A DNA stretch of 64,000 nucleotides from Candidatus Margulisiibacteriota bacterium (GCA_003242895.1 QKMY01000058.1:12739-76738), one strand, 5' to 3'; shown: positions 12,001-48,185, counted from the first letter of the stretch. The notes: a model not told the origin generated them from the sequence alone. Program-made: numbers and translations.

Positions 12001-13696
12001 TTGAAGGATTGGTCACATCTACCCAGAATGGCCCGCGATGAGCAGTATTGTAAGAAAGGTTGCTGGCGGAATCTTCAGGACGGATATGCAGGTAATAATC
12101 CTGTGCAGTAACGAGTGGAGAAGGAAGAAAAGTATAGCTAGTCACATTACCTACTCCGGAATCAGTGCTGTTTAACACTGTTGCTGAGGCCCTATCAAAT
12201 CTATATCGATAGGTGCTGATATTACTTCCGCCCATATCATTCGACATATTCCAGTATGCATTAACACTTTTCATCCAGGTGCTTGTATTCGGAGCTGTTA
12301 TCATGATATCCGGAGGGTTAGAAATATCTATATTTAATATAAAAGTCCTCGTTTGACTCCAGACGCCCGAAATACTTTTAACTTTTGCTTTAAAAGTATA
12401 AGTCCCTTGCGTTGAATAGGTACTTGGTAATGTGTATGAACTAGCAGCCTGGTCAATGATTGTGTCTGGTTCTGATCCATCCGTTGTATAGCTGATCCCT
12501 GCCATTCCGGAAATATTGCTCGGCGCTGTTATCGTAATCTGATGTCCAGTCAGGTTAGTCCAGACATTACTTACAGTACCCCTGCTGCTCACTATTGCCG
12601 GAGCGGCAGTGGAAGCATCTATCCAGACTTGGCTAAGGCTTGCCTCTGAACTCTCATTGCCTGCATTATCAACAGTCTTTACATATAACGTATATTTTCC
12701 ATCGATCGGACTGGCTTGAGAGGCACTTGTACCTGTAGTCGTACCTGAATAGGTCGTGTTAGTGCCAACCAACCTCCAACGATATTCTTTTAGTCCGCTC
12801 CCGCCAGAATCTGTAGCTGCAGTCCAGGAAAATGAAATCGGAGTTGCATTATTTGTATACCAGGTATTAAGTGTATGGGAAGTGCAGGAGAAACTTCCTG
12901 GTATCGAAGGGGCTATTGAGTCTATATAAAAAGGTCCCACATTAGTTGGAAGCGTTCCGGTATAGGTATGTCCCGCATCATCATTAACTACATTAAAATT
13001 AAGATATTGAGCGGTTGTGCTGGAAGTGTTGTAATCAAAAACATATGTTGGGCTATTTGAGGTATAATTTCCCCAATTCGTATATATATTTAATGGAGCG
13101 GCTCCACTGTCGTTTGTTTGCACTGTTACACGGACACTTTGATACCATGTTGGACCGCTGCCGGTTTTTACGGTTGATTGTGAAACAGAAGAAATAGGGT
13201 TCCAGTCAGCTTTGATTGTTATGGAATCAGAATATTGACTGCCATTAATGTAACAGGTTCCAGTATGAGTATTTGAACCCCCATTTGAGATTGCCCCATT
13301 CGGATTGTTAACATACAGAGAGTATGGGCTTGCATGACCACATCCTCCTGATGAGTAACTGATAGTGTAGCTTGAATATCCTGAGTTGGTAATATATCCG
13401 TTTGTCAAAGGAGCAGAACAGTAGAGACTGGCATAAGCTGAATAATAATCATGATAATCGTAATGTCCCGCAGAACAATATTGACAAGGATACGAGTAAT
13501 ATCCAGTACAATTCCCCATGCCGTCGTAGCCAGTGCAATAGCCGCAGGAGGTCCAAGCATACGAATCACACACCCACCAGTTATGGTATCCAGGCCAGGA
13601 AGCTGAAGATGCCCAGCTACCAGCGGCAGTGATTAGCAACATAATCACCCCGAAAAATAACGCATATAAAAATGTAATATTTTTAATCTTCCTCAA
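1..13696 (-). CDS. Giant secreted Ig-like repeat surface protein (partial, C-terminus lies beyond window start); >=4565 codons in window
   Basis: Manual minus-strand translation in the frame with codon first bases at coordinates = 1 mod 3 runs from TTG 13696 to position 2 without a stop. GAGGA 6 nt upstream; in-frame TGA at 13706-13708; alternative ATG at 13642. N-terminus MRKIKNITFLYALFFGVIMLLITAAGSWASSASW looks like a signal peptide. Recurrent motifs such as LYLWVKDRAGNIS and VTVTDNAGN. Not in the supplied ORF track, presumably because there is no stop inside the window. Confidence 0.85.
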   Translation of the reverse strand, partial: MRKIKNITFLYALFFGVIMLLITAAGSWASSASWPGYHNWWVCDSYAWTSCGYCTGYDGMGNCTGYYSYPCQYCSAGHYDYHDYYSAYASLYCSAPLTNGYITNSGYSSYTISYSSGGCGHASPYSLYVNNPNGAISNGGSNTHTGTCYINGSQYSDSITIKADWNPISSVSQSTVKTGSGPTWYQSVRVTVQTNDSGAAPLNIYTNWGNYTSNSPTYVFDYNTSSTTAQYLNFNVVNDDAGHTYTGTLPTNVGPFYIDSIAPSIPGSFSCTSHTLNTWYTNNATPISFSWTAATDSGGSGLKEYRWRLVGTNTTYSGTTTGTSASQASPIDGKYTLYVKTVDNAGNESSEASLSQVWIDASTAAPAIVSSRGTVSNVWTNLTGHQITITAPSNISGMAGISYTTDGSEPDTIIDQAASSYTLPSTYSTQGTYTFKAKVKSISGVWSQTRTFILNIDISNPPDIMITAPNTSTWMKSVNAYWNMSNDMGGSNISTYRYRFDRASATVLNSTDSGVGNVTSYTFLPSPLVTAQDYYLHIRPEDSASNLSYNTAHRGPFWVDVTNPSNITGLIRTAGVQANGIWTANNMLSMQWNASNDNVTYATQSGVAGYSYAANASAGTLADGTYDTVGTQLNNIVLPNSATAYFHVHAVDNVGNVGVEANLGPFKIDAAIPAGPVLSCVHSGGASMPDGVNGWTNKSGVFTFSINAPFSVSGIDRYSYTTDGTTPGDTNGIIIVDPAGSDPLQTFQITKTEGTYSINVRAKNNAGTWGNVTSFLLKIDTTIPPDISITAPATGTWLPNIGAYWTTSYDQGGSGINTYRYKLDNVSGTLVTSSDNGFGNVTYYTFPASALVSAQNYWLHIRPEDQAINISASTAHRGPFWVDVTPPTDVANVRCTSGHTTGTWSNNPVVRIDWNQASDAHSGLDGYVYSWDTNSNTEPAPGVAAANIYYQASLIDGNNLWFHVRSKDKVANYSTNSTHIGPFLIDTTGPVGSITIADDTDGSSIYQPENGYFDQTTVGFSWSISDSGSGINSVAYQLDSAAPVWGQSANGSLTCSLSEGVHTVYVIARDSVGNSSTFSKNIIVDLTAPVLNMAIAPDSDSNSDGISPIFPYYDDNTVDFSWEMSDASGPYQSGGAYRYRVATSDIPANTEWNAWSGFAYNGNAVNFVAYSNDGSYQNLGYVQARDRAGHVTESQAGFYVDMVAPVILGPDLLLPVNFLPCPPVLIGDVTPDIGYYGKETVVVYTIPTSAMQDVGGFTSSPYFAKNSIGTVSWTPYNTNTMNVYTSANIYKPATFNVAVADKAGNIKASAVGSQWVDTTTPNFYFVEVREDSDSGGDGVDPEPNWYDDSSITLKWDPAWDSVSLNTKTYFFSTNNGLTWSSGISLNTIGDINVGAVQGIVSIQIKVADAAGHVATKDVTVNVDTVSPTGFAVNWPQSGYYDKNNVVVSWTPAADNCQLKDRPFRAKVDNNAWSEWFTGQQFQFTGLAEGMRTLYLEVADRAGNVSISSTTLYIMASAPDGTLELSPKIISRGTWVHVTLNMSIEDISLLPNFQSIPELKMVYRYEDNSSSTPIVLSGSGLNYGLGNYTGEYIYKGDFLFNPGITPNSIEFYLSATNNAGTATKEKLIQSLIFSQGIIGTPTLILSDQDTYSTVWTNDLVVSVTLQGGGAASYWLLTEVNTPPVSPQDSRWSNSNQPLYTFKNNTNGLKTIYSWIMDAMGNISAGTSAAINYDATLPYVVSIDITNMPNISAGTKTVTINLSEELTYLPYAVIPEMWVTFNGGVKTNLNLTKVSPSLYTATLTIDGATPEGAAVFGVRIIDNANNVGSQILSGGSIVIDKSNPVVTSFKVMDRLTGSTLYTNSNRVDLEIKSSDSGSGIGWWLVTENNTFTPQANDSNWSGIVPEVYTLSGDQGAKKLYIWVKDLAQNISARATANNNLAGGPIDVATSIVYDSMYTPPTVDIQLLSIGDIHNVYSSTPVTVTLRMDNETQISTASLWIKLYGQDKVEVPLSSIINSGGNSYSCSGIVPFTVIGTANFEVSVTDVVGNATTRVNKIYYNTGISSINGGEIRINRNVAVPTVTMFDRGTSSSQYTNNQMIGVNIGNDPDAVRWLLSESSTGVAPEANDQNWRIDRPITYTFKNRVNELKSLFVWVKNRNEIISPVSTVATINYDDVIPFAVSVDIDNSPYVNGGVKTITVNLSEALQETPLLSLTVNGISVVLGPAAKVSGTKYTWVFNSSGMNGLGTFGIKITDNASNVGTGILAGGQISIDSTSPNISTFRLFDKLTGSELYTNARVVDLTLSGSSDINSWIITENSAFVPDTADSNWGAKPTSYQLTNVQGTHNVYIWGKDYALNINSNTTTIVYDNLIPEIGIDINHNPLNPITATKNLNVTINVLNIPSGISVTPNLYFNPYQKAAVPVTILGRTGTQFYGSITINSQTANGPAYFSAQVTDNARNYGTSVQWLKYSSIYFSNQLTVNIALITPTFILYDLDSKSSQFTNDFVVGVSYNYDQRSSAWLISETQSTNPSLTDPLWQSTPPVYFVLKNTNNGTRTSYLWTKDAAGNINTVPAIAIINYDNVFPQATSINFERGRYIKAGTSRVTVNISESVSATPDFYLTFMGSKRTITFDYFDGLTLAGFFTVDPNENGTAVINLTITDNALNITNVIPAGLISTINFDTVLPPDPTLGVNTSGLNRPDNSSGYTNTPTINVTISKDPDYFRYVIRELTAVPSENAEDWMPEPVQYRFVYETQGTRNLYLWVKDRAGNISNQYAFNSIVYDIDIPTGSLKLKCQANRSNQITNSLSNIVELAANDTDYYIITENAQFGKPDPLAAVWSAVKPANYDFDPDNIEEGPRYLYCWLMDKSGNINNVVVTTSIYYDPSVPNIGLLLTKSGWISTGDVSVTLDIGENIIVTPDLTYEVGGTTYSVELTPVDITRNAFIATLNVTEAFPNGFLTFHMTITDNAGTVTSDTFSYGTTTLNVDTVIPIIATAAIYDMDKPNSYNLTNDNPFNITMAITESTIKGYYISSNLIADPASIPPGTWLSERPQTYFHSESQGQYGYYIWVKDHAGNISLPRYVSTNFDAIAPTVSVEMARPPGVATFYGIGVVAVTINFNEPIASDSLSINIVCVADNRVNTLTYTVVNSQLVTGSFSVDGSFGDGRQFFRIIAEDLVGNRRVSDKPQGNYLENLDWPNTFVVATGIGFVSLKILDRDNLNNFSSSKYTNERYINMLFDQVALVTHYMITSNIGIKPVLVDITSPNNSESNEFSLNNYYISPSLAPDNQETVVTYNLWVKGASDIHNESTINASILVDLLTPEVTVSLNEGIKKIHAGEYILTVSVTEYIPSNNIKNSKFTYFNAATKILSFTPVGSPDSNNFYNTFRTTINIDSDTPSGQMTLSFNTYDKAGNRVDISTTYDISVVPNPSFNITDTNNGSPVFTNELTVSLNIISDDFADFYIITENATYYTRPERSFTAWRPKAEYTDSYTLSSGDGPKTLAFWVKDSSDPFEANINTKLITRTITLDTMEPTVNIRIGKTLGIGYSTVTFNYNEPILVAPSYFITMTPASGSPNALTRSIDILYSVSSNHTWIGQVEIRPFDVNDTATISGQTIDRAGNLSTSLFGTVTFSIDTLIPDPTFNIIDTDTDSNLYVNDLVVGLQIGNDKDAVKYMVSYTQSTQPTLNSPGWNADKPSNFTLKNVVNENKKLYLWVQDAYKNINKNVVSANIFYDDTPPQTEVKFGYRPYIKEGDYKITLNITQEILALNNTPDFKVQYAGQEALAIDIVPMDSSRYLWVGTINVNAEAPEGVATFSLSVTDNASNVQNKIISGMQTFVIDKTRPSAPGFTAYDPITLIQSYTNQRTIGVSVNIDSSVYMWYLSDQTNVTPDFDAVGWLTQQPTTFTFSDMVISTKNIKLWIQDRAGNISSTGSRSIYLDYDEPTATILISTYPNVKAGILNITLNVSEATLVGVSLNYTLYGYGEVARNVTLNQVSALTYTGTINVTEDFANGAALFNVQLVDYSGNRSNKLSGDIVFQVDTLLPEFSVHSIPDCYLNNTTLNITLNVSEAVSATPSVIFHSDIDAPVIMSCIGLNVWTGSLYISDSLGFDSSASLDVTVTDNAGNRSLAFVKPYTIDKIPADFTVESIKNSPNLAIGSYTLTLNVSEHTINPPQAYFSMSDSSTHSILMSRSINNYWAGDIIISDGYPEGICTINIRVTDYAGNVTSIFGGIVTFNVLITLADPTMNITDRTSGDKIYTNEYSIAVDVGNDNTAVKWMVNETQSVKPEWNAAGWQSSKPNLYTLNAGPEGHRKVYLWIQDSARNINKTIVSQNIILDTIKPVSQINMTKRDFVSIGAVSLTLSIQEDTPATPELKLVYADGSTLNFLLNGVSPNIYTATFNVFQNDPQGVASFYLCVTDNASNVQNTLVGDKQFVLDTVASTPSFVIFDYDTGDTNYTHDLLPRVIINSDADVVSWILSEVQPTRPSPTSNYWRNEKPYEYTFRNTDFGIKTVYLWVKDSAGNINDMAVTRSISYFRSTSVNIEVTAIKIFNQTGSTYSYIRP
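100..7960 (-). repeat. Tandem coding repeat array inside the giant gene: ~13 diverged copies of a ~200-220 aa two-domain module (period ~600-680 nt)
   Basis: Motif [LF]W[VI][KQ]D-x-AGNI recurs at approx. 135, 740, 1925, 2555, 3180, 3805, 4485, 5095, 5405, 6020, 6640, 7240, 7930, interleaved with a second motif (V-T/D-D-N-A-x-N). Copies are conserved at protein level but diverged at DNA level. Confidence 0.7.
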
Positions 13697-13727: not shown

Positions 13728-15068
13728 CTATTTTGCACATCTGAACCCTGTACAGCCACAAGGACTCGAAGGAGCTATTCCGGCCATAATGGAAAAAACC
13801 CCTGATTGTTCATTCATTTTGTGTTCTCCGCCTCTCAGCAAAGCGGCAGGGAAGCATTGTCCTTCCGCTTGATTAGAAGCTGATTTAACTTCACTAACAC
13901 TATCGTTACCATAGGAAACTCCCGTATTAGGAAAAAATCCGGGATCATACTGACCTTTACCGATTCTTATCATTTTCAGGGTTTCTACTATCAATTTCTC
14001 TATATCCTTAAATTTTGGATCAATTTCTAATGTAAATGCTTTCATATCAGGCTGAAATCTACTCGATATCTTTCTGTTTTCATCGAGGTAATAATTCTTC
14101 TTTAATTCTTCCCAGATTTCTTCAGATTTAAACGAGGTTTTTTTTTCAATCTCATCAAAGGCATTTTTTTGTACTGGCCCCTGATAAAACATGCCATTAC
14201 CCTGCATCCAGTCGCTTACCCATTCATTTACATTCCCCGCCATGCCAACACAGCCAAAGGTAGAAATTTCCTGAGCGGCTATAGTGTCCCAGGAGGCCGG
14301 AAGTTCCCCTCCCCGCCCTTTGCTTAACGCCGTGCCTGCTGCGCCGTCCTGCCATTCGCCGTTTGTCACCAGCCGCTTCCCTGCGTTAACTGCTGCCCTG
14401 CGAGCGACAAACCAGGTCATTCCGGTCGAACACTCAGCCCTTTGAGAAAAAGCCATCCAATATGGTGGCACATTCTGGCCATTACCCGCCAAAATCCCAA
14501 AATCATTATGATTATGATCATGTTGGCTGTCTTTTTTATTTTCGTTCCGCTGAATAAAATATGTCCCTTTTACGTCAGCACCTTTATAATCTGCACCCAC
14601 ATCAATTATCCGGCAGGAATACTTATCTATCCAAACGGTACCTACCTTCACCTGTATATCATCTTGCCCGCATCGGTATGCCGGCATATCCGGATTGTAT
14701 TTGTTATTAATATGAGTTCCTGGCGGCAACTGATCCAGTTTGCCATGAAAAAAACCGACATTATTTCCTGTTACTATCCAGGAAACAGGATCTCCAGGAT
14801 CAATTGTGCCCCGGCTGGCATCTATGACTTTATTATATTTCCAGGCCCTTTCTTCATCATCCCACCCTACCCATAGAGCATTAAACATTAGATAACTCTG
14901 TCCATTATTGCTAAAATCCGGCCATTGATATACCGGAACAGAGTTAGCATAATAGTTGGGTAACCGGTTATCAACCTGCTGAACCGCGGCTTCGCCGACA
15001 ACTGAAAATACCATTAAAAAAAAGCATAGTGAAAGTATAATTCTGATCTTGTGATAAAATTGCATCAT
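13728..15068 (-). CDS. FGE-sulfatase/SUMF1-family domain protein (formylglycine-generating-enzyme-like; GldK/GldJ-like possibility), secreted
   Basis: 446 aa with N-terminal signal peptide. Motifs AGKRLVTNGEWQDGAAGT and MAGNVNEWVSDW resemble the FGE signatures RLPTEAEW..ARGG and GNVWEW. ~140-aa C-terminal extension ending PCGCTGFRCAK. 31 bp upstream of the giant gene, same strand. Confidence 0.65.
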   Translation of the reverse strand: MMQFYHKIRIILSLCFFLMVFSVVGEAAVQQVDNRLPNYYANSVPVYQWPDFSNNGQSYLMFNALWVGWDDEERAWKYNKVIDASRGTIDPGDPVSWIVTGNNVGFFHGKLDQLPPGTHINNKYNPDMPAYRCGQDDIQVKVGTVWIDKYSCRIIDVGADYKGADVKGTYFIQRNENKKDSQHDHNHNDFGILAGNGQNVPPYWMAFSQRAECSTGMTWFVARRAAVNAGKRLVTNGEWQDGAAGTALSKGRGGELPASWDTIAAQEISTFGCVGMAGNVNEWVSDWMQGNGMFYQGPVQKNAFDEIEKKTSFKSEEIWEELKKNYYLDENRKISSRFQPDMKAFTLEIDPKFKDIEKLIVETLKMIRIGKGQYDPGFFPNTGVSYGNDSVSEVKSASNQAEGQCFPAALLRGGEHKMNEQSGVFSIMAGIAPSSPCGCTGFRCAK

Positions 15069-15076
15069 CGTCTCCC

Positions 15077-15790
15077 TTATAATAAAAATAAAATACCTAG
15101 CGCTAAAAACGTAAAAGCCATAACCAACTTAAACCAACCTATTTTTTCTGTCAAAAATCCGGAAAGCTTCCGGGAAGAAAGCCCGCTGTAAGTTAATAAT
15201 CCGATTATGATTAAAGGAAAAACAAAAAATACGTTATAAACGAACAATAGCAATGTGCCCTTTATCGCAGAACCGGTTTTTATCATATACAGAATCGAAG
15301 GGAAATATATCTGTCCGGTACAGTTCAGCTCAAATATAGATACCAGGAAACCTAATACCAGTGAGGCAATCACGATATTTCCTGTCATGGTTTTCTCTCT
15401 GATTGCGTTTTTAATTCTTTTTTGTAAAAAGTCCGGTAACCGTAAGATGAACTTATTTTTTTTTGTAAATGCCAGATAAGCATCATAAAAAGAAAGGGCC
15501 GAACCAATGAATGCAAGACCTGCTATAACGCATTGAAAAAGCCTGGCAACAATAAAGTATGAACCGGTTTTATAAAGAAATTGAAATAAGCCAAACCCTA
15601 TCAAAAAATAGGTAACAAACACTGCTATCGTAAATAATGCAAAAGAAAGCATCATTTCCTGTTTTCTCTGTCGTACTGACAGGTACGAGAGCAAAAAAAT
15701 TACCGTACCAAATGCACACGGATTTATTCCGTCGATTAAACCTGCCATGCATATAGTAATAAAACTGAGATTAACCAAACTATTTAGCAT
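15077..15790 (-). CDS. CcdA/DsbD_2-family thiol:disulfide transmembrane electron-transfer protein
   Basis: 237 aa, polytopic and hydrophobic. N-terminal motif GLIDGINPCAF and a second membrane-embedded Cys (FELNCTGQIY), as in the cytochrome c biogenesis transmembrane (DsbD_2) family. Confidence 0.55.
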   Translation of the reverse strand: MLNSLVNLSFITICMAGLIDGINPCAFGTVIFLLSYLSVRQRKQEMMLSFALFTIAVFVTYFLIGFGLFQFLYKTGSYFIVARLFQCVIAGLAFIGSALSFYDAYLAFTKKNKFILRLPDFLQKRIKNAIREKTMTGNIVIASLVLGFLVSIFELNCTGQIYFPSILYMIKTGSAIKGTLLLFVYNVFFVFPLIIIGLLTYSGLSSRKLSGFLTEKIGWFKLVMAFTFLALGILFLL

Positions 15791-16880
15791 CCTCTCTCAT
15801 AATATGATCAAGCTGTCTCTCTATCTCAGTTTTACCTGCCAGTAACAGTCCATTAAAATATAGTGCCGGCAGATCAAGTTTATTTCCCATTATCTTCATA
15901 TAAGTCTTATAATTATCAGGCTCTTCCAGAGGATAAAAAACAACCTCATAATGTTTATTATGAGCAGCTAATACCTGCGGGATCTTCTTTGTTCTTAGTT
16001 TGTGACAATAGGCACAATTACTGTTAGAAAATACATAAATAATATCCCTGGATAACCTTGTATCTTTTTGCTTTTCCTGACCTCTTAACTCTTTATAATA
16101 TTCGAGCATCAGACCCTTAAGCTTTTTTGAGGCCATAAAACTGTCGGCAGGTATCATTTTCTGGGAGATGAGATTAACGGTCCCCTTCTCTATGCTAAAA
16201 ACCATCTTTCCAAGGAATTGAGCATCTTTTCCTGCTGATACAAAATGTGTCTGCCCTACTGTAAAAGAATTCTGATACTCACTTTCACTGGAGACAATAA
16301 TATCAATCCAAGGGAATTTCTTCGCGATTTCAATATTCTCTTTTTTAGAAAGCTGGGATAATAAAACTGTCAGGTCAGCTGATTTTTTTTGTACACTAAA
16401 GTGCCCTGACAAATACGTCTCGAATGCAGATTGCTTATCAGCAGCAACCCCGAGAATGATTATAGTGACTCCGGATTTCTTAACCGAAATGTATTTCTGG
16501 GTTTGTGCACCTGATTGAACAGAGGATACAAGAGGAAGTTCACGTACCTGGTTATCTGCCGGCACATCCAGGTTAATTGCATCATATTTAAATAAGTTCA
16601 TAGCGGCTGCAACATACTTGTTTTTTGCACTATTATCAGGTAAAAAAGTTCCTCCGTTATCAACTATTACTAAATTAGGATTGCGTTCCCTTTCTTTTTC
16701 AACAAGAGGCAATAGCAACTCTAGTCCGCCATTCGCTTCTGTTGAACAATTACACGATTCTAATTTCCCGTTGATATTAGAGGTAAACAGCAGGGTAATA
16801 GTTTCTGCATTCAAAAAATTACAACTGCACATCGATAATACAGTAATAAGAAAAAAATAATTAATAATAATTCTACCCAT
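15780..16880 (-). CDS. Exported thioredoxin/glutaredoxin-like CxxC protein with N-terminal degenerate metallophosphoesterase-like domain
   Basis: 366 aa with signal peptide. C-terminal thioredoxin-fold-like segment with CAYC (YVFSNSNCAYCHKLRTKKIP...). N-terminal part weakly resembles a calcineurin-like phosphoesterase (ITLLFTSNINGKL, LVIVDNGGTF) but lacks the usual His/Asp ligands. Overlaps the CcdA-like gene by 11 bp. Confidence 0.5.
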   Translation of the reverse strand: MGRIIINYFFLITVLSMCSCNFLNAETITLLFTSNINGKLESCNCSTEANGGLELLLPLVEKERERNPNLVIVDNGGTFLPDNSAKNKYVAAAMNLFKYDAINLDVPADNQVRELPLVSSVQSGAQTQKYISVKKSGVTIIILGVAADKQSAFETYLSGHFSVQKKSADLTVLLSQLSKKENIEIAKKFPWIDIIVSSESEYQNSFTVGQTHFVSAGKDAQFLGKMVFSIEKGTVNLISQKMIPADSFMASKKLKGLMLEYYKELRGQEKQKDTRLSRDIIYVFSNSNCAYCHKLRTKKIPQVLAAHNKHYEVVFYPLEEPDNYKTYMKIMGNKLDLPALYFNGLLLAGKTEIERQLDHIMREDAK

Positions 16881-16900: not shown

Positions 16901-19561
16901 TTATTTACTGTTCTCGATACTAGCTATAACTTTTTCAGCATCAACAGAATCGCTTATCAATAGAGAACCTGGGACCCCTCCGGGCAGAGCATTACGAATG
17001 AACGCATCAATATCCTCCTGGCTTGCTTTACCGATATGGCCAAAACTCTTTTTGATTAACGTAACTATACCTTGCTTGCTTAGGTGTTTAGCAACTCCGA
17101 CAACTTGTTCCTGTGCATCTATTACTTCAATATTAGTAATCGTTTTGCTCTTAAGCTCAATTACCTGATTGACCATATCACGCATACCTTCTGTCAGAAT
17201 GCTCCTAATGTGCTCACTGTCAGTGTTATCAATATGAACAATCGCTGCTGCTGCTATATAGGGATCAACAACGGAAAAGATCTGACGGAGTGCGGTGTCG
17301 TCCAGCAGCAACAGATCTTCGAATAACAGGATCATATCTCTGATCTCTTCAAGTACATCCGGGAACCTTTCAGCCATAACCTTAGTAAGCTCAGTCTTGT
17401 CGTTGTCCCTTATCTGATTAAGAAGCCCAAGGACAACTTCTCTTCCACCAACAAGGCTTGATAGTTTCTCCCTTATACGCGTGTCCAGAAACTCTATCTC
17501 TTCTTTACTATATTGGTTACTATAAACCAAATATGAAAGTACTTCTGCTTGCTCTAAATGGCATAACTGAGACAGAATAATATTAGCCATAGACGGCGAT
17601 AAATAAGATAAAATTATTGATATTTTTTCTAGATCGATTTGTCCCTGTTCATATTCTGACTTGAGCAAATTCCTTAGCTTAAAAATATTCCCTTCATTAA
17701 CAAATGCAAAAAATCCGACAAATGAATTCGATGTCAAATCAATGGACGCTGCCGCTCCAATCGGTCCCGAACCAGCATCTTTCGATCCCTCGCTTGCTCC
17801 ATATCCAGCCCCAAGAGTTAGCGCGCTTGACGAAGCTGCTCCAGATTTATCAGCCATTTTAGTCACACCATCGGAAACTACCGATAAAGATTTCCTGAAT
17901 AAAACGCCTATCAATAAAATAACTACAATGATTGCAGCAGTATTAGCTATAGAAACATAATGGTTGATTCCTAATGCCAGCGACTTTTTAGATTGTGAAT
18001 CCGAAAAATCCCCCGTTTGTGAGACACTCTTGTATTCTGCCCTAAACTTATCAACTATATTTTGTACGTCGAGAACAGTGTCCTTTCGAACTCTGTAAGC
18101 TATTTCTTCATTTTTCGATAGCCTGTCTTCCACCAACTTTAAATTTCGATTAAGTTCTTCCTGGATATTTTGATTATTATTAAAGAATTTATCTGCGACA
18201 GAAGACATAGATTCGTCACTAATTTTATCTTTAGTTATGAACAAATTTTTATTCATTTTTACCGGAAAATCAAAAAAACCATTCACAATACCAACGATTT
18301 TCTTCTCTTTATTACTATCGATATCAGTTGGCACAGTAATATATACATTTACATCTTTAATAAAATATTTGTCATATAAATTGGTCGATTGAATAGGAAC
18401 ACCAGGCAATAATGATTTTTCCTGAATTGGGGAAAACAGATCAATACCGATATCCAGCTTTAATAAAACAACGATATCTTTGATATTCAACTTTTTTCTG
18501 ATAACATTTTGTAACCTGGTTTCCAATGTCTGTTCCAGTTCTGTTTGTTTTCCAATAAAAGCACGGTCCTGTTGTCTGCCCTCATGCTGAAGAAATTCTC
18601 TCACCAGTTTGTTATCAGGATCGATTTTCAGGACGTTATTCCAGTCTTGTCTTGCCTTATCAAAATTATCCAGCAAAAAATTAGCGGACCCTCTTCTCAT
18701 TAACGCCGCTACATTTTTAGGGTCTACATCCAAAACTTCATTGCATTCTTTAACAGCATCATAAAACTTCCACTCGTTTATATATTTTAAGGCCCTTGCT
18801 AATTTCTCTTCAATTATTTCATCAAAATCATTCTGTTTGATAATATTGTGAACATCGTTTATTAAATCCTCAGATTTTTTTGTATTCAAGTATTTACTAA
18901 CGCTATCATCCAATAATTTATTCTTGATAAAAACATTAGCCTCTCTCTTCGGAAATTTAAATTCGTTCTTGAATTTAGCGATTTTGTCACTAAATCTATC
19001 TGTATTTGACAGCATTTCAACCATTTTTCCCCGAGACAAATAGATCCTATCTTCTAACGGAGAAGATCCAGAGGCCAGATTGGCGCTACCGTTATAATAA
19101 TTTTTTGGAAAAACCAACAATTTATTGATTATTTCAGCGGCTTCTTTTTCCTCGATGAATGACTTTGGATAAAATTTCTTATTGTCGGGAACACCAATTA
19201 ATTTCAGATTAACAGCTCTGCATATAGCCGGAGCTGCACTATAGTCTTCAGGCACATCAACAAAAAAGTTGGAATACTTATAGTTATCATCTTTATCTGT
19301 TAAAGAAACGATAAATGTAATGAATTGGCTTTTATTGATTAAACGGTCTGAATTAAATAAATTACCTTTATTAGGGATGAGGAGCTTGTTTGTAACAAAA
19401 TAATATATTTCTTTGGCATAAGGATCTTTTTCAGATATGTCTTTGAGAACAAACGTTTCCGATTTTTCGGCCTTCGTTACAACAACATCACCTATGGTAG
19501 CTTGAGCCATTATGAATATCAACGCTATTACAGCGATAATTGTCCGTTTTAATAACTTCAA
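16901..19561 (-). CDS. Bitopic membrane protein: periplasmic TPR-containing domain, one TM helix, Gly/Ala/Ser linker, cytoplasmic FliG-like (FliG_M + FliG_C / MgtE_N-like) domain
   Basis: 886 aa; TTG start with AAGGGGGA RBS. TPR-like segment YDAVKECNEVLDVDPKNVAALMRRGSANFLL..NNVLKIDPDN. TM helix SIANTAAIIVVILLIGVLF. C-terminal ILSYLSPSMANIILSQLCHLEQAEVL and MILLFEDLLLLDDTALRQIF resemble the FliG middle and C-terminal signatures. Confidence 0.6.
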   Translation of the reverse strand: MKLLKRTIIAVIALIFIMAQATIGDVVVTKAEKSETFVLKDISEKDPYAKEIYYFVTNKLLIPNKGNLFNSDRLINKSQFITFIVSLTDKDDNYKYSNFFVDVPEDYSAAPAICRAVNLKLIGVPDNKKFYPKSFIEEKEAAEIINKLLVFPKNYYNGSANLASGSSPLEDRIYLSRGKMVEMLSNTDRFSDKIAKFKNEFKFPKREANVFIKNKLLDDSVSKYLNTKKSEDLINDVHNIIKQNDFDEIIEEKLARALKYINEWKFYDAVKECNEVLDVDPKNVAALMRRGSANFLLDNFDKARQDWNNVLKIDPDNKLVREFLQHEGRQQDRAFIGKQTELEQTLETRLQNVIRKKLNIKDIVVLLKLDIGIDLFSPIQEKSLLPGVPIQSTNLYDKYFIKDVNVYITVPTDIDSNKEKKIVGIVNGFFDFPVKMNKNLFITKDKISDESMSSVADKFFNNNQNIQEELNRNLKLVEDRLSKNEEIAYRVRKDTVLDVQNIVDKFRAEYKSVSQTGDFSDSQSKKSLALGINHYVSIANTAAIIVVILLIGVLFRKSLSVVSDGVTKMADKSGAASSSALTLGAGYGASEGSKDAGSGPIGAAASIDLTSNSFVGFFAFVNEGNIFKLRNLLKSEYEQGQIDLEKISIILSYLSPSMANIILSQLCHLEQAEVLSYLVYSNQYSKEEIEFLDTRIREKLSSLVGGREVVLGLLNQIRDNDKTELTKVMAERFPDVLEEIRDMILLFEDLLLLDDTALRQIFSVVDPYIAAAAIVHIDNTDSEHIRSILTEGMRDMVNQVIELKSKTITNIEVIDAQEQVVGVAKHLSKQGIVTLIKKSFGHIGKASQEDIDAFIRNALPGGVPGSLLISDSVDAEKVIASIENSK

Positions 19562-19585: not shown

Positions 19586-20827
19586 CTAATACTGATTTTC
19601 CAAAGAATTCTCTATAAATTTAAGCAATTCCATTATCGAGCGGTTTGCCGGCATATACTTTTCTGCATTTTTCGCTTCATTATAAGCATCCATGACCCTG
19701 TCAGCCTTCAACAATTCCCTGGCTTTCTGAATGTGCTCCCACGCTTGCTTTTCATCCGCCAGCGAATATGTTTTCAGTTTTAAAATATTATCCAATTTCT
19801 CTATTTGCTCTTTAATCTCGGCAGTAAGCTCTGCAATAGTTCCCGCGGAGCTATAAGATTGCCTGGATAAATTGTAAAAACCTCTTTCCTGGTACATAGA
19901 ACCCTCAAGAATAAGTTTATCACACTCTTTCTTAATAACCTCTTTTTTATCGTCACCAAAGTTTAAAACCATAGAAAATTTCATCGTATCGCCTATGGTC
20001 TCTTGTTTACCTAACGCTAAATCGAACTTAAACATCAGATATTCTATACCTATGCCAAAAGTGAGTTCGTTATAATTAATCCCACTTCGAAGATAAAGCA
20101 TATCCAACAGCTTGTATTCCGCCCCTAAATACCACTGATCAAAGGAATCTGTGATATCATAGGCAATTATCCAGTCATTATCAGCGTAACTAATGCCACC
20201 ACGCCATACCATAGGGATAGTATCTGCAGTCATCGAAGGAGCATTATTCATCACATAAATATTATTAAGTACTGCGCCTATAGTCATTTTATCTAAAATC
20301 TTATAATTTAAGCCTAGATCAAAAACAAAAAAAGAATCAGAGCTAACATCCAACTCTCGATTAAACATTTTGAATCCAATACCGTAAGACAATTTATGAT
20401 CAAATTGTTTGGCATAGCCAAGGCACAATGCACTACTCTTATCATTAAATGAACCTATATTATTGTTGTCTTTATCTGTTTTTATAAATCCGACTGAATC
20501 AGATAAATTGATTAGCCCTCCTCCATACGTTTCGTATAACCCGGGATAAACAAATGAGAGAACAGAATAAGAGTAAGCTTGGAACATTGAGGCTGACATA
20601 AAAAGGAAAGACATTTTTGGTACATCTACTAAACAAGCAGGATTGCGATAAACAGATGAAGCATCCTTACTATTTGTTACATACGTTCTCCCCATTGCAA
20701 AAGACCTTGCATCTGCTCCGTATGAGAATAAAGCTCCAGGCTGACCCGCATCAAGCGCTTGAGAACCGCCGACGAAAAAGATCAGGTTTAAAACAAAAAA
20801 AATAATTAGAAAGACACTTTTTAACAT
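19586..20827 (-). CDS. Outer-membrane beta-barrel protein, PorV/PorQ-like N-terminal signature, plus C-terminal alpha-helical domain
   Basis: 413 aa with signal peptide. N-terminal motif GADARSFAMGRTYVTNSKDASSVYRNPACL matches the PorV/UPF0164-type signature. Alternating amphipathic beta pattern for ~290 aa, then a ~120-aa charged helical tail. First gene of the operon. Confidence 0.45.
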   Translation of the reverse strand: MLKSVFLIIFFVLNLIFFVGGSQALDAGQPGALFSYGADARSFAMGRTYVTNSKDASSVYRNPACLVDVPKMSFLFMSASMFQAYSYSVLSFVYPGLYETYGGGLINLSDSVGFIKTDKDNNNIGSFNDKSSALCLGYAKQFDHKLSYGIGFKMFNRELDVSSDSFFVFDLGLNYKILDKMTIGAVLNNIYVMNNAPSMTADTIPMVWRGGISYADNDWIIAYDITDSFDQWYLGAEYKLLDMLYLRSGINYNELTFGIGIEYLMFKFDLALGKQETIGDTMKFSMVLNFGDDKKEVIKKECDKLILEGSMYQERGFYNLSRQSYSSAGTIAELTAEIKEQIEKLDNILKLKTYSLADEKQAWEHIQKARELLKADRVMDAYNEAKNAEKYMPANRSIMELLKFIENSLENQY

Positions 20828-23579: not shown

Positions 23580-25910
23580 TTATAATCCGGCAAGTGAAGA
23601 GTTTTTTGAGCTATCTTTAACTATCACTTTAAGTATCGTATTCGGATTCCCACTATTCTTAACTTTAGAGAAAAACTGCCCGGTTGGCTTTATATATAGA
23701 GACTTATTATTTACTGCCACTACAAGACCCTTATTTGCCATTCCTTGAACAATTATGTTCCCTTGAGAAAAGCTGACTATAATTTCTACTTCTTTATCAT
23801 TGTTATCAATTGCAGTTATAACTATTTCTTTATCTTTTGCGTAATCTACTTTTGCAAATAACTTATAGCGTAAAGAATTTATACTGGTCTTTTTCCCATC
23901 AATAATAAGTCCCTTAATACCCTGGGCACTACCTTTAATTATTACTTTATTAGCTTTTGTCTTATATACTTCCAAAGAGATATTCTGAGTAATTATTGAG
24001 CTCTCAATGTTGACGACTTCCCTATTATTTAAATCAGCATTTGCCTCAGTATCGAATACCTTGTTTGTGCTAAGATACCTCGCCAATATAGTCGCAGCCT
24101 CTACTCTGTTAATCCTCTTATTCGGATTTAATGCGCCTTTTTCATCTCCACCAGCACCTAATGCTGAAATATATATTTTTATAAATTCATCATATTTATG
24201 AGGGATCAATACAGCATCTTTATAGGATATCTCAACATTTTCTTCGGCTTGGTAACCCTCTTTTTTCAACGCTTTCGCTATCGCAACTACCAACTCTAAT
24301 TTTGTGAATGGTTTAGTCGGTTTAAATAACATAGCAGATTCACCATTAACTACACCTAAAGTTACAGCTTCCTGAATTATACCTGATGCCCAGTGACTAG
24401 AGCTTACATCGTTAAACCGGGTATTCGTCTTGTCGTTTGCTTTAATATTGATGTATTCAGTTGTTACATGAAGCTCTTTTGCTGTATTCATCTCTTCATA
24501 CGGATTCTCTACCACAACTTTAACTTTATAAACTCCATCTTCTACAACTTTGTTTGATTTATCAGTGCCATCCCAAACTAATTTTTTTTCTGAAGTATTT
24601 ACATCAAGTATAGTATTAATATTCTTTACTAAAACTCCATCTTTATTATAGATATCCACTCTTATTGGTATATGATTATTTTTTTCATCTTTATTCAATT
24701 TTATTGAGAACTCTGCATTTCCGGCTTTTTGTTTCAATTTTAGTGCTAGTAAAACTATTTTTGTAGCTTCAGATTTTTTAATGATTCCATTCGGATCATA
24801 GTTTCCATCAGGCCTGCCATTTACTACTCCTAAGCTAGCCATATCTTCTACAGCCTTCTTGCCCCAGTGATCTTCCATATCGGAAAACTTAACATCCAGC
24901 CCGGCAGGCTTAATTACTGTTGATGAGACGACATCCAATTTTACCATCTCGTCTTTTTGTGGAAGAGTTGCTCCAAGCCCAGTTGATTTATCAATGGATA
25001 CGCTATCAAAGCTTAATCCGAAAGAGAAAGAATTATTATTCTCAAGCACTCCATCAGGAGATCCCATATATGCGTAATTAAAATTAAACACGTCATATTT
25101 GATTCCAGCTCCAAATGTTAACGCAGAATTGTTTAAGCCCCCACGAAATGACAATAAATTCTGATAATTGTATTCGACACCTAGTCCATACCCCATTTTA
25201 CGATTATTGCGAAGCGTCGCATCATAAAGCAATGTAAAATCATTTATTTTCTGGGAAACTCCAATGGTAGCTTTAAAAGGGATAGTGTCAGTATTATTAC
25301 TTTCGGTATCCCATCTCAGAGCCGGCTTTACTACATTTTGAAGATTAACGCCAACTTTCAGATCTTCAAACGGATTGTAAAGGAAGCCTATATCCATGCC
25401 AAAACCGGTTGCCTGTTTATTGTACATACTTTCATTGATATATTTGGTTGTTACTCCTAAGGCTAATGAAGGAAGAACGTTAACTCCATATCCGATCATA
25501 ATCGCCTTAGCCCCATAATCAAAATTCTTGCCAGTTTCCGTAGCTCTAAACTGGCTGCCAATCTGGTCTAACGTTGTTTCTTTTATTCCTGCAACTCCAG
25601 CAGAAAAATACGTAATACCTAAACCTGCATTATCTCCAATTGGAATTACTCCGCCGAAATAAGTCTGGTCGACATCTCCATATAGTTTTGTGTACATTGA
25701 ATCAAATTGGATGTTTTTTATTTGGGCAAGCCCTGCACTATTGTACATTGTTGCATGGGCGTCATTGCTGAGGGCTGTAAAGGCTCCTCCTAATGACTGA
25801 GGCCTTGCACCGGCACCCTTTTCGAGAAATGCGCCGGCATTTGAATAATCCTTCGCATAACCTACGTTTGCAAATGTGAGTAGTGTTAATATTAAAAGTA
25901 GCTTTTTCAT
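23580..25910 (-). CDS. Mosaic outer-membrane protein: PorV-like beta-barrel N-domain + SLH domains + FlgD-Ig-like domain + C-terminal beta-rich domain
   Basis: 776 aa with signal peptide. N-terminal GAGARPQSLGGAFTALSNDAHATMYNSAGLA (PorV/UPF0164-like). SLH-like segments FSDMEDHWGKKAVEDMASLGVVNGRPDGNYDP and FNDVSSSHWASGIIQEAVTLGVVNG. FlgD-Ig-like KKLVWDGTDKSNKVVEDGVYKVKVV. Confidence 0.55.
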   Translation of the reverse strand: MKKLLLILTLLTFANVGYAKDYSNAGAFLEKGAGARPQSLGGAFTALSNDAHATMYNSAGLAQIKNIQFDSMYTKLYGDVDQTYFGGVIPIGDNAGLGITYFSAGVAGIKETTLDQIGSQFRATETGKNFDYGAKAIMIGYGVNVLPSLALGVTTKYINESMYNKQATGFGMDIGFLYNPFEDLKVGVNLQNVVKPALRWDTESNNTDTIPFKATIGVSQKINDFTLLYDATLRNNRKMGYGLGVEYNYQNLLSFRGGLNNSALTFGAGIKYDVFNFNYAYMGSPDGVLENNNSFSFGLSFDSVSIDKSTGLGATLPQKDEMVKLDVVSSTVIKPAGLDVKFSDMEDHWGKKAVEDMASLGVVNGRPDGNYDPNGIIKKSEATKIVLLALKLKQKAGNAEFSIKLNKDEKNNHIPIRVDIYNKDGVLVKNINTILDVNTSEKKLVWDGTDKSNKVVEDGVYKVKVVVENPYEEMNTAKELHVTTEYINIKANDKTNTRFNDVSSSHWASGIIQEAVTLGVVNGESAMLFKPTKPFTKLELVVAIAKALKKEGYQAEENVEISYKDAVLIPHKYDEFIKIYISALGAGGDEKGALNPNKRINRVEAATILARYLSTNKVFDTEANADLNNREVVNIESSIITQNISLEVYKTKANKVIIKGSAQGIKGLIIDGKKTSINSLRYKLFAKVDYAKDKEIVITAIDNNDKEVEIIVSFSQGNIIVQGMANKGLVVAVNNKSLYIKPTGQFFSKVKNSGNPNTILKVIVKDSSKNSSLAGL

Positions 25911-26205: not shown

Positions 26206-29200
26206 TTATTTCAAAACTGCTATCTTAACTTTTTCTTTTGTTTTATGCTTGCCGTCATCTATTATGAGATATCCGAGATAGACACCATTCGAAACAACTT
26301 CACCGAATTTATTTCTACCATTCCAAATTATCTCATTATATCCAGCTTGAGCTCCCGGTTCGTCTTTCGATGCTTCCATATTAAATAATAACTCACCACT
26401 AATTGAGTAAACCCTTAGTTCCGTATCCGCCGGCTGACTTAGGTAATAACTAATATAAGCACTTCCCTTGTTAGGATTAAAAGGATTCGGCGCAGATAAA
26501 AGTTTAGTTACCGTTTCCCCTGACACCAGGAAACTAACCTGAACTACTATGCTCGACGTCGATAAATCATTCGCCTGGACAAGAATAGAATATCTTCCCG
26601 GAGCAAGAGTTATAGCAGGATTGAAGACATATGATGCAGTAGCCACAATTGATGCTGTTGGGAATGCTACTATTCCTGATACAGTTACAATATCGTTCTT
26701 CCAATCTTGGATTAGCACATTGTAAGTTGTCAGGAAAACATCATCAACAAAACCAACCTTCACTTCTCGAACTTCATTCGAGATATAATCCCCAGTAACT
26801 ACCACTTTATCGTTGACATAAAGATCTGAAGCTGATCGAGGACTGTCTACTATTGAGGTTATTACAAATGCCTGCGAATTATTAACAAGTTCATTACCGA
26901 AAATGTCTTTGATATTACGAATCTCTATCTTTGCAATACCAGTATTCATTAAATTGCCTATTTCTGTTTCTGCCACCCATACGGCATTCTTAACTCCGGA
27001 GGATTCCAATCTAACAGCAAACTGCTCGGTTACTCCTAAGATATCAACACACGTTATAATTGGAAGTGAAGTACTATCCACTCCTGTATCGTCAGAAACA
27101 TTTATAGTTAGAGTCATAGTATTGCCGAAGGGGACCCTTCGATCCAATTTATCAAAACTCGTAGCAAATGCATTAATAGTCGGGGCCCTTAGCTCCGCTG
27201 CATATACTATAGATGCGAAGCTAATTACCGTCCCATTGTCACTACTAACGTACTGAGCAGTATGCCCAGCTAAATCAACTATACACGAAGTATCAAAATA
27301 AAGGTTTCCTGTACCAACTGCTAAGCTATAATCAATCGGAATAACTCCTCTTATTATATTATTAACAATATTCACGCTAGCAGCGTTAGCATATATCTTC
27401 TGATGGTCTTTTGACATCTCTAGCCAAATCTTAGGTTCAGAGTCCGCAGATATCACAACTATGCCTTTTTCGATAATAGGGATTACAAAGTGAATGCCGT
27501 TAGGACCAAGCTTCACAATGGAACCCGTTACGATTTCTTCCTCGAAAGCAGTCTTGGAAATAGATACCTTTTCTTTAGTAGATTTTGCTTTCGCAACTTT
27601 ACTAAAGATGCTCCTAAATGTATCCTTCTTCGTAGCTACTGATAAGGCACTAATACCTGTGTTACTTGCAGCAATATCATCTGATGTGAAAATCAGGGTA
27701 TCGGCACTGAATTGAGGTAACATCGGCGAAGTTTGATCTGTTTCAAAAGAGATATTATCAACAGTAAACCTATCTTTGCCCGCATTATAAACTTTAAATT
27801 GAAAAGCAAGTATATTTTTAATTAAATCTTCAATCGGAACTATATTTCCAAAATCCCCATTCAATCTAAAATCACTATAGGAAAGAACAACTCGATTAAA
27901 CTGACCATTAATCCAAGTATCCGGGTCCATATGTTCTACAAAGAATGCTTCATAGTTGTTACCGAGCGTTAAATCATCATTTGCAAGAGCTACCGATACC
28001 TGACACATACTATCGTAATTTCCACTAACATATAAAGTTACAGTATCGTATTGGCTAAGATCAACTGCAACATTGCTGTTAGCAAATGGCCTGCTTACCA
28101 TCATCCAATTCGCGTCATCAGTACTATTGTATGCGATATTTAGCCCTTTCGACCCATCAACACCATTATTGGATATCCAAGCATTTATTGTAGCTTCAGA
28201 AGAAGGAGAATCCGCTCCGGACCACCAGTATTCACCGTAAGATTCCATGTCAAATGATTGCATAAAGTTAAAGGTTGTTGGGATCGGCGGAGTGTTAGCA
28301 TCATAATCAAATGACAGCTCATCGAAATATATGTTTCCAGCCCCACTACCATTAACTCGGAACTGAATTGTTTTTGCTTGAGCTAAGAGGTCTTTAACTG
28401 AAACAAGATTACCAAACAGCCCTTGAGGCATGAAGCTGCTTAGCGGGATCGATATTCTAGTAAAAGTAGAATTATTAACAGAATCCGTCACTACTTGACT
28501 TAAATCAACGAAATAGTTGTTATAACTAGTAACATCATCATTAGCGATGATCAATTTCAACCGACCGACTTCTTCTTTGTTGCCCTTTACATAGAGGTGC
28601 ATCACATTATACATCGAAAGGTCGACGGTTGGAGTTACCGCAGTTCCTAGAGCTCGACCAATAATTGACCATGAACTGTCAGACGTATTGGAATAATTAA
28701 TCTGGAATGACTTCATTGTCCCGTCGGCACCTTCATAGACAATATTATGATTGATAGTCGCGCCATAGGCTGCTGTATCCCACCACCAGTTGCTTCTGTC
28801 TTTCTCAAAATCGTATTTGCCAGCAAAATTCAAGTTCAGGGTCGGCACATACGGTGGATTCTGCGCAACATCGAACCCTAAGTTATCGACGATAAAGGAG
28901 CCTGAAACTTGCCCTTCTATCCTGAACTGTATTGCTTTTATATTACTTAATATTGTTCCAAAATCTATGGCGGTTTCCATACTATTCATCGGCCTAAAGT
29001 CACTGAACGGGATCACGACTTGATTATAACCATTGGCATTATAGCTGTCTTTATCGATACAATCATAAATATTTGCTCCATAGTTGTTGTATGAGGTAAT
29101 CGTATCGTTCGCCAGTACCATCAAGATATTCTTGAACTGCTCGACGTCACCCTTTAGCGACACCGTTATTGATTTGTAATTATTCATTGCGACAATGTCG

Positions 29201-38410: not shown

Positions 38411-38466
38411 TTCATAAATTCCCCTCTGCCTATGGGGGGGAAATATTACTTTATGGAGACAAAAGC

Positions 38467-39654: not shown

Positions 39655-39691
39655 TATTCATAAAATTCACTATATAGATAATGGAGACAAA

Positions 39692-40855: not shown

Positions 40856-40866
40856 AGGATTGATTT

Positions 40867-41970: not shown

Positions 41971-42041
41971 AATTACTCCATTACGAAAAAAGTAAATTAT
42001 AATAATTTAATAATCCAGGATTACATAGGTGGTAAAAAAAC

Positions 42042-44313: not shown

Positions 44314-44378
44314 CAATTATTTAAAAATAGATTCTATTTGAAGTGAATCCAACCGGATTCGGCAATAAAAAATAAAGG

Positions 44379-45281: not shown

Positions 45282-45385
45282 ATTTCCCCCGCGTGTTCTT
45301 ATATATTATTACTGGCAGGTGAAAGATCATTACTAGAAAAGCTAAACTTTTTATCAGTATATTCCTAATTATTATTGTAGCGGCA

Positions 45386-46075: not shown

Positions 46076-46080
46076 CAACC

Positions 46081-46713: not shown

Positions 46714-46830
46714 AAAATATTCTCAGTTCTGAAATCTTGGTATTTGAACTTGTCAGTATGCTTGGTTATAAAGTAAGATAAGCTATAAAAAAATGAAAAA
46801 ACAAATAAACAGATACATCGACAACCAATC

Positions 46831-48063: not shown

Positions 48064-48185
48064 CATGCTATAATTACATTCAATTTCAGTTTTAATTTTT
48101 GAAGATGTTTGAGAAATTATGTCTGATAATTTTTCTTTTCCTTATCAATATTTTTTTATAATAATTATAATTTAGGAGTTAATTT

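Follow-up and report, generated by a model that had tools for sequence, protein, structure and literature searches.

A candidate envelope redox pair and a static lectin-fold protein encoded ahead of a giant adhesin gene in a Candidatus Margulisiibacteriota bacterium

Introduction

In a 64,000-nt stretch of DNA from Candidatus Margulisiibacteriota bacterium (GCA_003242895.1, QKMY01000058.1:12739-76738; hereafter the window, meaning the whole stretch), three genes for proteins of 366, 237 and 446 aa lie between positions 13,728 and 16,880, directly upstream of the gene for a giant repeat-rich adhesin. The locus raises the question of whether the three genes form one dedicated system acting on the cysteines of the giant protein. 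This was the original prediction, made from the sequence alone, which read the three products as an exported CxxC thioredoxin-like protein, a CcdA-type membrane electron conduit and an exported FGE/SUMF1-family protein, and took the giant protein as the likeliest client. On balance, we favour a different arrangement, namely two separate modules within one surface-structure operon: a redox relay made of the 366- and 237-aa proteins, and a lectin-fold binding protein of 446 aa. The original prediction is thereby upheld in part, for the thiol-redox relay, but neither for a Cys-modifying enzyme nor for conservation of the three genes as a cassette.

Reading of the open reading frames (ORFs) confirmed three consecutive minus-strand genes upstream of the giant gene, with coordinates, strand and spacing as first described. 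They belong to a string of six consecutive minus-strand ORFs, of 413, 886, 366, 237 and 446 aa followed by the giant ORF, with spacings from upstream to downstream of 24, 20, -11, 8 and 31 nt. The tight same-strand packing with the giant gene was also confirmed: the 366- and 237-aa ORFs share 11 nt, a gap of 8 nt separates the latter from the 446-aa ORF, and this one stops 31 nt ahead of the TTG start of the giant gene (13696). Hydropathy analysis gave one N-terminal hydrophobic segment in each of the 366- and 446-aa proteins and six segments in the 237-aa protein.

The redox pair and its relatives

The 366-aa protein starts with a signal segment (residues 4-22) and has two domains. Residues ~26-270 form an apparently degenerate UshA/5'-nucleotidase-fold domain with a CNC motif (C43/C45, window 16746-16754), and residues ~278-366 form a glutaredoxin (Grx)-fold domain with a CAYC motif (C289/C292, window 16005-16016). 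The profile scores are low: Pfam Thioredoxin_2 gave 18.6 bits against a cut-off of 27, and the NCBIfam matches to UshA-like (seleno)protein, SoxB and glutaredoxin models each fell below their own cut-offs, for example UshA_like_PCGU (NF041198) with 61.1 bits against a curated cut-off of 275, and GRX_euk with 18.8 against 87. Judged by these scores, the protein is a distant relative of NF041198 and not a member by NCBI's criterion.

An AlphaFold2 (AF2) model of the protein has a predicted local distance difference test (pLDDT) score of 81 and a predicted template modelling (pTM) score of 0.77. In this model the C-terminal domain has the order beta-alpha-beta-alpha-beta-beta-alpha (strand 280-285, helix 290-306, strand 312-317, helix 321-329, strands 339-342 and 345-348, helix 349-364), with the C289/C292 pair at the start of helix 1 and the conserved P338 directly ahead of the strand that begins at residue 339; as modelled, the domain is of the glutaredoxin/thioredoxin fold. 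For the N-terminal domain, the Foldseek matches include SoxB besides E. coli 5'-nucleotidases (E 1e-16). C43, C45, C289 and C292 are invariant in a 16-sequence homologue alignment. The description as an exported CxxC thioredoxin-like protein is therefore right as to export and the CxxC Grx-fold domain, and wrong as a single-domain label, since the UshA-fold CxC domain precedes it.

The metallophosphatase-motif stretches of the 366-aa protein read FTSNING, VDNGG, AINLD, LSQLS and VSSES. We tentatively take these, by sequence and not by structural position, to correspond to the DxH, GD, GNH(E/D), H and GH.H ligands of UshA; on that footing, most of the dimetal ligands appear to be replaced. Like the UshA-like (seleno)protein family (COG0737; NF041198), the protein is exported, has an apparently degenerate 5'-nucleotidase fold and carries its CxC (CxU in the family) a few residues past the position of the first metallophosphatase motif. 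Unlike that family, it uses Cys and not selenocysteine, its Grx-fold domain is coupled to a CcdA-like partner, and its metallophosphatase motifs appear to be eroded further than those in the consensus of the family. The UshA-like CxU version is a catalogued selenoprotein family whose function is not published (PMC2398784; PMC13188914).

On the 237-aa protein, Pfam DsbD_TM (PF02683) scored 29.1 bits against a cut-off of 27.1 over residues 11-202, and NCBIfam matched the protein weakly to the membrane portion of DsbD (PRK00293). Cys25, within an NPCAF motif (window 15716-15718), and Cys157, within ELNCTGQ (window 15320-15322), lie in or beside hydrophobic segments 1 and 4. The above-threshold DsbD_TM match, the six segments and the cysteines in segments 1 and 4 agree with the predicted CcdA/DsbD-type membrane conduit. 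As in CcdA-ResA, DsbD and ScsB-ScsC, there is one conserved Cys in each of segments 1 and 4 and an exported CxxC partner of thioredoxin/glutaredoxin fold, adjacent or fused, and the fusions imply that the N-terminus faces out, as in CcdA/DsbD. Unlike in these relays, the partner in the window adds an apparently degenerate UshA-fold domain with an invariant CxC, the Grx-fold domain is N-terminal to the membrane domain in fusions, the Cys motifs are NPCAF and CTGQ, and no cytochrome c maturation genes were seen near the window pair.

The relatives show how the two genes belong together. In a 5.8-billion-protein index, the sole non-self homologue of the 366-aa protein is one protein of 633 aa (P0072), to which the 366-aa protein aligns over residues 14-388 (33% identity) and the 237-aa protein over residues 400-633 (47% identity); the motifs LESCNC, NCxYC, NPCAFG and ELNCTGQIY are all kept. 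A HMMER search of 1.84 billion cluster representatives gave 613 relatives of the 366-aa protein at E <= 1e-3, and architectures were counted among the best 150 of these 613. A CxC is present within the first 140 residues in 135 of the 150, and 82 are short stand-alone proteins. Nine have a fused C-terminal CcdA-like membrane domain with NPC[AS]F and CTGQ motifs, while 34 have at least two CxxCH haem-binding motifs instead of a membrane domain. The membrane domains of the nine fusions match the 237-aa protein at 33-47% identity, and NPC and CTG are kept in all of them. In addition, a second split pair was found (L022), in which a 402-aa gene (CTC, CGYC) overlaps a separate downstream 244-aa CcdA-like gene by 4 nt; the product of the latter is 44% identical to the 237-aa protein and keeps both NPC and CTG motifs. 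Fused in nine clusters and split in L022, the exported CxxC partner and the CcdA-type conduit hold up as a pair, and these sequence comparisons indicate that the 366- and 237-aa genes form a single unit, which represents a recurrent, putative three-domain envelope reductase in split form.

From the gene fusion with a Grx-fold domain, we infer that the 237-aa protein would transfer electrons from thioredoxin to its CxxC partner. The path suggested by the fusions and by analogy with CcdA/DsbD would run from cytoplasmic thioredoxin to Cys25/Cys157 of the CcdA-like protein and across the membrane, from this Cys pair to the Grx-fold CxxC of the 366-aa protein, and from there to the UshA-fold CxC at the former metal site, which is likely the catalytic end. 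Because the CxC domain is fused to CxxCH haem motifs in 34 of the 150 relatives, its electrons seem to come by interchangeable routes. At L010 (6867-8474), one of the eight distant genome-contig loci described below, a UshA-fold CxC domain is followed by four CxxCH haem motifs; P0076, P0148 and P0209 are also multihaem-fused versions of this domain (alignment A5). A redox architecture is defined by these comparisons, in which a UshA-fold CxC domain, a Grx-fold CxxC domain and a CcdA-like membrane domain occur split or fused. Its terminal domain has so far been listed just as a selenoprotein family of unknown function, and the fusions suggest an electron path for it.

The two closest fused relatives (P0072 and P0073, on contigs of JGI 3300072015) each lie directly behind a gene for an exported PEGA-domain protein of ~1,000 aa, and in one of these contigs the fused redox gene is followed by a MacB-type FtsX/ABC pair. 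A profile scan of genome contigs with the 366-aa alignment gave eight distant UshA-like loci (20-26% identical) from Bacteriovoracaceae, a Deltaproteobacteria metagenome-assembled genome (MAG) and Brevibacillus, and tblastn found no 237-aa CcdA-like or 446-aa FGE-like match in these eight loci. At the examined redox-module loci, split or fused, there was no FGE-like gene and no giant adhesin.

Fold and catalytic residues of the 446-aa protein

On the 446-aa protein, Pfam FGE-sulfatase scored 27.7 bits against a cut-off of 23.3, over residues 260-302 only. A signal segment (residues 10-28) is followed by a family-specific beta-rich region (~45-130) and a C-type-lectin (CLec)/FGE-type domain (~133-446). 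About 20 close homologues share a block covering residues 45-300 and also the C-terminal motif LPAALLRGGxWxxGxxAGVFAxxAxxAPSxW....GFRC. Many homologues have N-terminal stalks with GNVGIGT..P..KL.V repeats, which match the Bdellovibrio fibre protein bd2133; the 446-aa protein has no N-terminal fibre stalk. The lectin-fold domain is split by a charged helical insertion of ~110 residues (~291-400, window 13869-14198), which is lineage-specific and absent from all homologues; it was modelled at low confidence (pLDDT ~50-67).

The structural matches of the protein are, with the figures as listed, Mtd 13.3, TaqVP 12.7 and TvpA 12.6, then PvdO 11.9, EgtB 10.8, SUMF2 10.8 and PorK 10.0. The best three are solved variable proteins of diversity-generating retroelements (DGRs), from a Bordetella phage (Mtd), Thermus aquaticus (TaqVP) and Treponema denticola (TvpA). 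With FGE (SUMF1) and pFGE (SUMF2) the protein shares its fold and the motifs TW..A...A...GKRL..EAEW, GN.WEW, RGG and GFRC. However, the catalytic, Cu(I)-binding cysteines of FGE lie in a CxxxxC loop a few residues past RGG(S) (C336 and C341 in the human enzyme), and these are missing here. The 446-aa protein reads EHKMNEQSGVFSIMAGIAPSS past its RGG motif and RGGEHKMNEQSGVF at the position of the FGE catalytic Cys; the two equivalents are Met and Gly, at positions that are variable or Gly across the family. No Cys occurs at residues 274-404 or 406-436 of the protein, and no catalytic Cys is found in the family consensus RGGxWxxGxxAGVFA; HMMER alignments to FGE structures skip the catalytic loop. 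In this lack of Cu-binding Cys, and of any sulfatase or CxPxR sequence, the protein differs from FGE and resembles the inactive pFGE. Profile and structural classification thus confirmed the FGE fold of the supposed exported FGE/SUMF1-family protein, and its export, while the absent active-site Cys and the closeness to Mtd, TaqVP and TvpA speak against a Cys oxidase. We predict, from sequence and model, an exported, non-catalytic ligand-binding protein with a C-type-lectin/FGE fold.

These results bear directly on the proposal of a dedicated cassette, in which an FGE-type enzyme of 446 aa oxidises cysteines of the giant adhesin and the CcdA-like and thioredoxin-like proteins service the reaction. 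It can call on the above-threshold FGE-sulfatase match and FGE fold, on the tight same-strand packing with the giant gene and on the Cys-rich N-terminus of the giant protein. We nevertheless consider it extremely improbable, given the Met and Gly at the catalytic equivalents, the lack of the DinB domain that EgtB-type enzymes need, and nearest relatives that are DGR targets and a phage protein. No sulfatase was found among the scanned window ORFs, in agreement with the original prediction, and the giant protein has no [CS]xPxR motif as far as it is visible (4,565 residues). Moreover, the cassette is not conserved: the redox pair and the lectin-fold family both recur, the former without an FGE-like gene and the latter without a CcdA or thioredoxin (Trx) gene at the family loci examined, and the two were never found together elsewhere. 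A reading of the 446-aa protein as an EgtB/PvdO-type enzyme was rejected as well. The FGE-family label thus denotes a binding scaffold and not a Cys oxidase; a tempting wrong annotation is removed, and the gene implies no new protein-modification system.

The ranking of structural matches is also relevant to a reading of the 446-aa protein as a structural lipoprotein, similar to PorK/GldK, in a type IX machine by which the giant protein would be exported. PorK is indeed among the matches, but it ranks eleventh, behind the three DGR proteins, and the 446-aa protein has no NCBIfam match at E <= 0.1 in a collection that presumably holds the GldK and GldJ models. Genes resembling PorL, PorM, PorN or Sov were not found among the scanned window ORFs, no lipobox-type signal peptide is evident in the translation, and the close homologues bear fibre stalks and DGR variable regions. 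This explanation is very unlikely.

Relation to diversity-generating retroelements and phages

Close homologues of the 446-aa protein are exported like it and are bona fide DGR targets (47-51% identical over 57-61% of the query). Downstream of one (P0005), 51% identical over 57% of the query, come bAvd and a reverse transcriptase, and beyond the latter a 125-nt repeat of the P0005 3' end; of the 19 differences, 18 are at template adenines. Another (P0010), 47% identical over 61% of the query, is likewise accompanied by bAvd and a reverse transcriptase, with all 12 differences at template adenines. A third homologue (P0008, 47% identity) lies on a phage contig, between portal/terminase and other phage-like genes, and a PHROG 'tail protein' family matches the 446-aa protein and its homologues. 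The phage link of the family rests on this one metagenomic phage contig and the PHROG match; a profile scan of viral contigs with the lectin-fold alignment gave no confirmed locus.

The last 41 residues of the 446-aa protein (window 13731-13853) are the equivalent of the variable region of the DGR homologues, yet the window copy differs from an active target in several ways. In the 64-kb window, no reverse transcriptase or Avd was found by tblastn (L008 queries), and no template repeat by blastn with the last 473 nt of the 446-aa gene. Ten strain variants of the protein differ at 10 sites, two of which, 415 (L/H) and 421 (A/S), also given as residues 416 and 422, fall within the 41-residue equivalent, which makes up 9% of the length; both are scaffold residues in the homologues' templates, neither lying at a template-Asn position. 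The window copy is the H/S variant (P0221) and not the cluster representative, and two of ten sites are too few to call. Where the homologues' templates encode Asn, the 446-aa protein has Glu, Lys, Met and Gln, which adenine mutagenesis of AAY codons cannot yield. In addition, both scaffold Trp of the DGR homologues are lost, and the sequence past the stop codon consists of just 31 AT-rich nt and has neither a GC-rich element nor a hairpin. The window copy is static and not diversifying, a domesticated DGR-type binding protein; it further departs from the DGR homologues in lacking a stalk, in its helical insertion and in its place in an adhesin/PorV-like operon.

A contrary view of this part would be that the 446-aa protein is an active DGR target and that a retroelement at another site in the genome diversifies it in trans. 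The close homologues that are true DGR targets, the alignment of the C-terminal 41 residues with their variable regions and the two polymorphic sites within that equivalent could be cited for it. The scaffold location of those two substitutions, the only ones there across the ten variants, the residues beyond the reach of AAY mutagenesis, the lost Trp pair, the bare sequence past the stop codon and the window without reverse transcriptase, Avd or template repeat all stand against it, and there is little chance that it is correct.

A link between such lectin heads and surface proteins is seen at other loci as well. On an Elusimicrobia contig (L005), the lectin-fold gene is followed by an 863-aa fn3 protein and then a PorV-family gene; the C-terminus of the fn3 protein matches the C-terminal part of PorZ (type IX) and resembles a sorting domain. 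On an unassigned metagenome contig (L018), the lectin-fold gene comes after a PorV-family/TPR gene and one whose product has a FlgD-like C-terminus. The 413-aa PorV-like protein of the window is 25-27% identical to the PorV-like proteins encoded beside the CLec homologues at these two loci. DGR-type lectin heads near PorV-family genes and large surface proteins thus recur at no fewer than three loci (the window, the Elusimicrobia contig and the metagenome contig), which hints at display of such binding proteins outside phages. This lead is incremental and, like the redox architecture, modest rather than surprising. At a further locus (L019, 3964-11013), a complete DGR (target, bAvd, template repeat and reverse transcriptase) has a DUF2341 protein upstream and, downstream, a protein of at least 959 aa with immunoglobulin (Ig)-like repeats resembling those of the window giant protein (tblastn E 9e-7).

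Proposed organization of the operon and client of the relay

In the two-module reading, the operon order would be PorV-like barrel, SLH/TPR/FliG-like protein, redox pair, lectin-fold protein and giant adhesin. The 446-aa protein would descend from a family used by DGRs and phages as receptor-binding heads, and would most likely serve as a binding subunit shown together with the giant adhesin via a PorV-like pathway. As in PorV-dependent type IX display, a PorV/PorQ-family barrel is encoded in the operon, and the lectin-fold genes of L005 and L018 have as neighbours a PorV-family gene and a gene whose product has a C-terminal-domain-like end; unlike in type IX systems, no core machinery genes were seen in the window, and the phyla lie outside Bacteroidota. 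Two large proteins encoded farther upstream (23580-25910 and 26206-30012, minus strand) carry FlgD_ig-like domains, which in one of the two is located at the C-terminus. The PorV-like gene and the FlgD_ig proteins suggest, on sequence grounds, a type IX-like sorting and display route in Margulisbacteria.

The giant ORF starts with TTG at 13696, with a GAGGA Shine-Dalgarno sequence 6 nt upstream, and runs without a stop to the window edge (4,565 codons); it is called as 5,692 aa on public contigs. Its product has a signal segment (residues 7-25), and past the N-terminal region it carries Y_Y_Y, Big_13 and OmpL47-barrel-type Ig-like repeats. Residues 43-148 (window 13253-13570) form a Cys/Tyr/Gly-rich module with nine Cys, including CGYC and CQYC. 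The rest of the visible protein has 14 Cys (23 in total in 4,565 residues), and the mature 446-aa protein has eight. Other exported proteins of the window are Cys-poor, with no Cys in one of 776 aa and five in a mature protein of 1,268 aa.

As the client of the relay we tentatively name the Cys-rich exported products of its own operon, i.e. the nine-Cys module of the giant protein and the eight-Cys lectin-fold protein, whose cysteines the relay would keep reduced or correctly paired. We rate this best guess as somewhat less likely than not. In favour of a local protein client, these two products are Cys-rich while the other exported window proteins are Cys-poor, and the two nearest fused relatives lie directly behind the ~1,000-aa PEGA proteins. 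For the view that the giant protein is the likeliest client, its Cys-rich N-terminus and adjacency speak and nothing else does. Sediment Margulisbacteria are described as fermenters without a respiratory chain (PMC6349859), which makes cytochrome c maturation an unlikely role for the relay.

Several observations weigh against parts of this reading. In more distant relatives the redox module has mnmG, an M48 peptidase gene or a TonB-dependent receptor gene as its neighbour, and given such unrelated neighbourhoods the module is not adhesin-specific. The multihaem fusions of the CxC domain would suit a protein and a small molecule equally well as substrate. On the display side, the sorting domain that would link the giant protein to PorV is putative, the last 1,127 aa of the giant protein lying beyond the window, and the PorV_fam score of the 413-aa protein, 80.7 bits, is below the NCBIfam cut-off of 90. 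In addition, a Foldseek search against BFVD (viral structures) gave only weak matches with low template modelling (TM) scores.

An alternative for the redox pair is a reductase of the envelope with a general or small-molecule role, whose substrate could be, for example, a compound of sulfur or selenium or the oxidised thiols of the envelope at large. The neighbours would then not be its clients; the lectin-fold protein would still bind. A general or small-molecule substrate is favoured by the unrelated neighbourhoods of the distant homologues and by the haem-fused CxC versions. The CxC family is also large (the 613 representative clusters) and mostly stand-alone or haem-fused, its domain is related in fold to the thiosulfohydrolase SoxB, and CxU selenoprotein forms suggest catalysis (PMC2398784). 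Against this stand the operon packing, with its 11-nt overlap and gaps of 8 to 31 nt, the locally high Cys content of the two exported products encoded downstream and the position of the two nearest relatives directly behind large exported PEGA proteins. We regard this alternative as rather unlikely.

A more speculative synthesis, which has only a small chance of being right as a whole, would join the two sides. The UshA-fold CxC (CxU) domain would form the catalytic terminus in a widespread, so far undescribed class of thiol/selenol reductases of the envelope with interchangeable inputs (CcdA plus Grx, or multihaem cytochromes c). One member would have been recruited to the PorV-linked adhesin operon, where it might process the Cys-rich module of the 5,692-aa adhesin together with a stalk-less, domesticated DGR-type lectin head docked on the adhesin.

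Operon boundaries and neighbouring genes

The coordinates of the operon genes are given in Table 1. The operon probably starts at the PorV-like gene, two genes upstream of the 366-aa gene, because 712 nt of intergenic DNA lie upstream of the PorV-like gene. A sequence scan found no terminator-like site in any gap of the six-gene string, and promoter-like sites were no commoner than in shuffled sequence; the promoter/terminator scan was uninformative.

Table 1. Genes of the six-gene string and the evidence for their assignment
Feature	Window position	Strand	Basis
Giant repeat-rich surface protein, first 4,565 of 5,692 codons	1-13696	-	ORF, profile matches
446-aa exported C-type-lectin/FGE-fold protein (predicted), Mtd/TvpA type	13728-15068	-	Pfam, structural matches, homologues
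237-aa CcdA/DsbD-type membrane protein	15077-15790	-	Pfam DsbD_TM, hydropathy, fused homologues
366-aa exported two-domain redox protein	15780-16880	-	Profiles, AF2 model, Foldseek, alignment
886-aa bitopic SLH/TPR/FliG-like protein	16901-19561	-	Pfam, NCBIfam, hydropathy
413-aa PorV/PorQ-family outer-membrane beta-barrel	19586-20827	-	NCBIfam, below cut-off

The window is 99.7-99.9% identical to public contigs, e.g. GCA_001783265.1 MFRF01000005.1, a Candidatus Margulisbacteria MAG from Rifle groundwater. The N-terminal 330 aa of the giant protein had no match in the 5.8-billion-protein index, not even itself, and the giant protein seems to be absent there; an exact 54-mer from the window start had no match in metagenome contigs.

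The 413-aa protein matched NCBIfam PorV_fam (1.4e-22), and also PorQ and PorV2, and has a C-terminal helical extension of ~120 aa. The 886-aa gene, 20 nt upstream of the redox pair, codes for a signal/anchor segment, SLH and TPR domains, a membrane segment (536-554) and a C-terminal FliG_M/FliG_C-like domain, in this order. Pfam FliG_C matched at 1.5e-12, together with FliG_M, SLH and TPR, and NCBIfam fliG at 5.8e-13 over residues 618-833. A membrane-anchored FliG-like domain between a PorV-like gene and a redox pair is unusual.

On the plus strand, positions 37472-49361 of the window hold an ordinary cell-wall/division cluster (by Pfam, mraY, murD, ftsW, murG, murC, murB, ddl, ftsQ, ftsA and ftsZ), which is followed at 49452-50798 by a gene for another SLH-domain protein.

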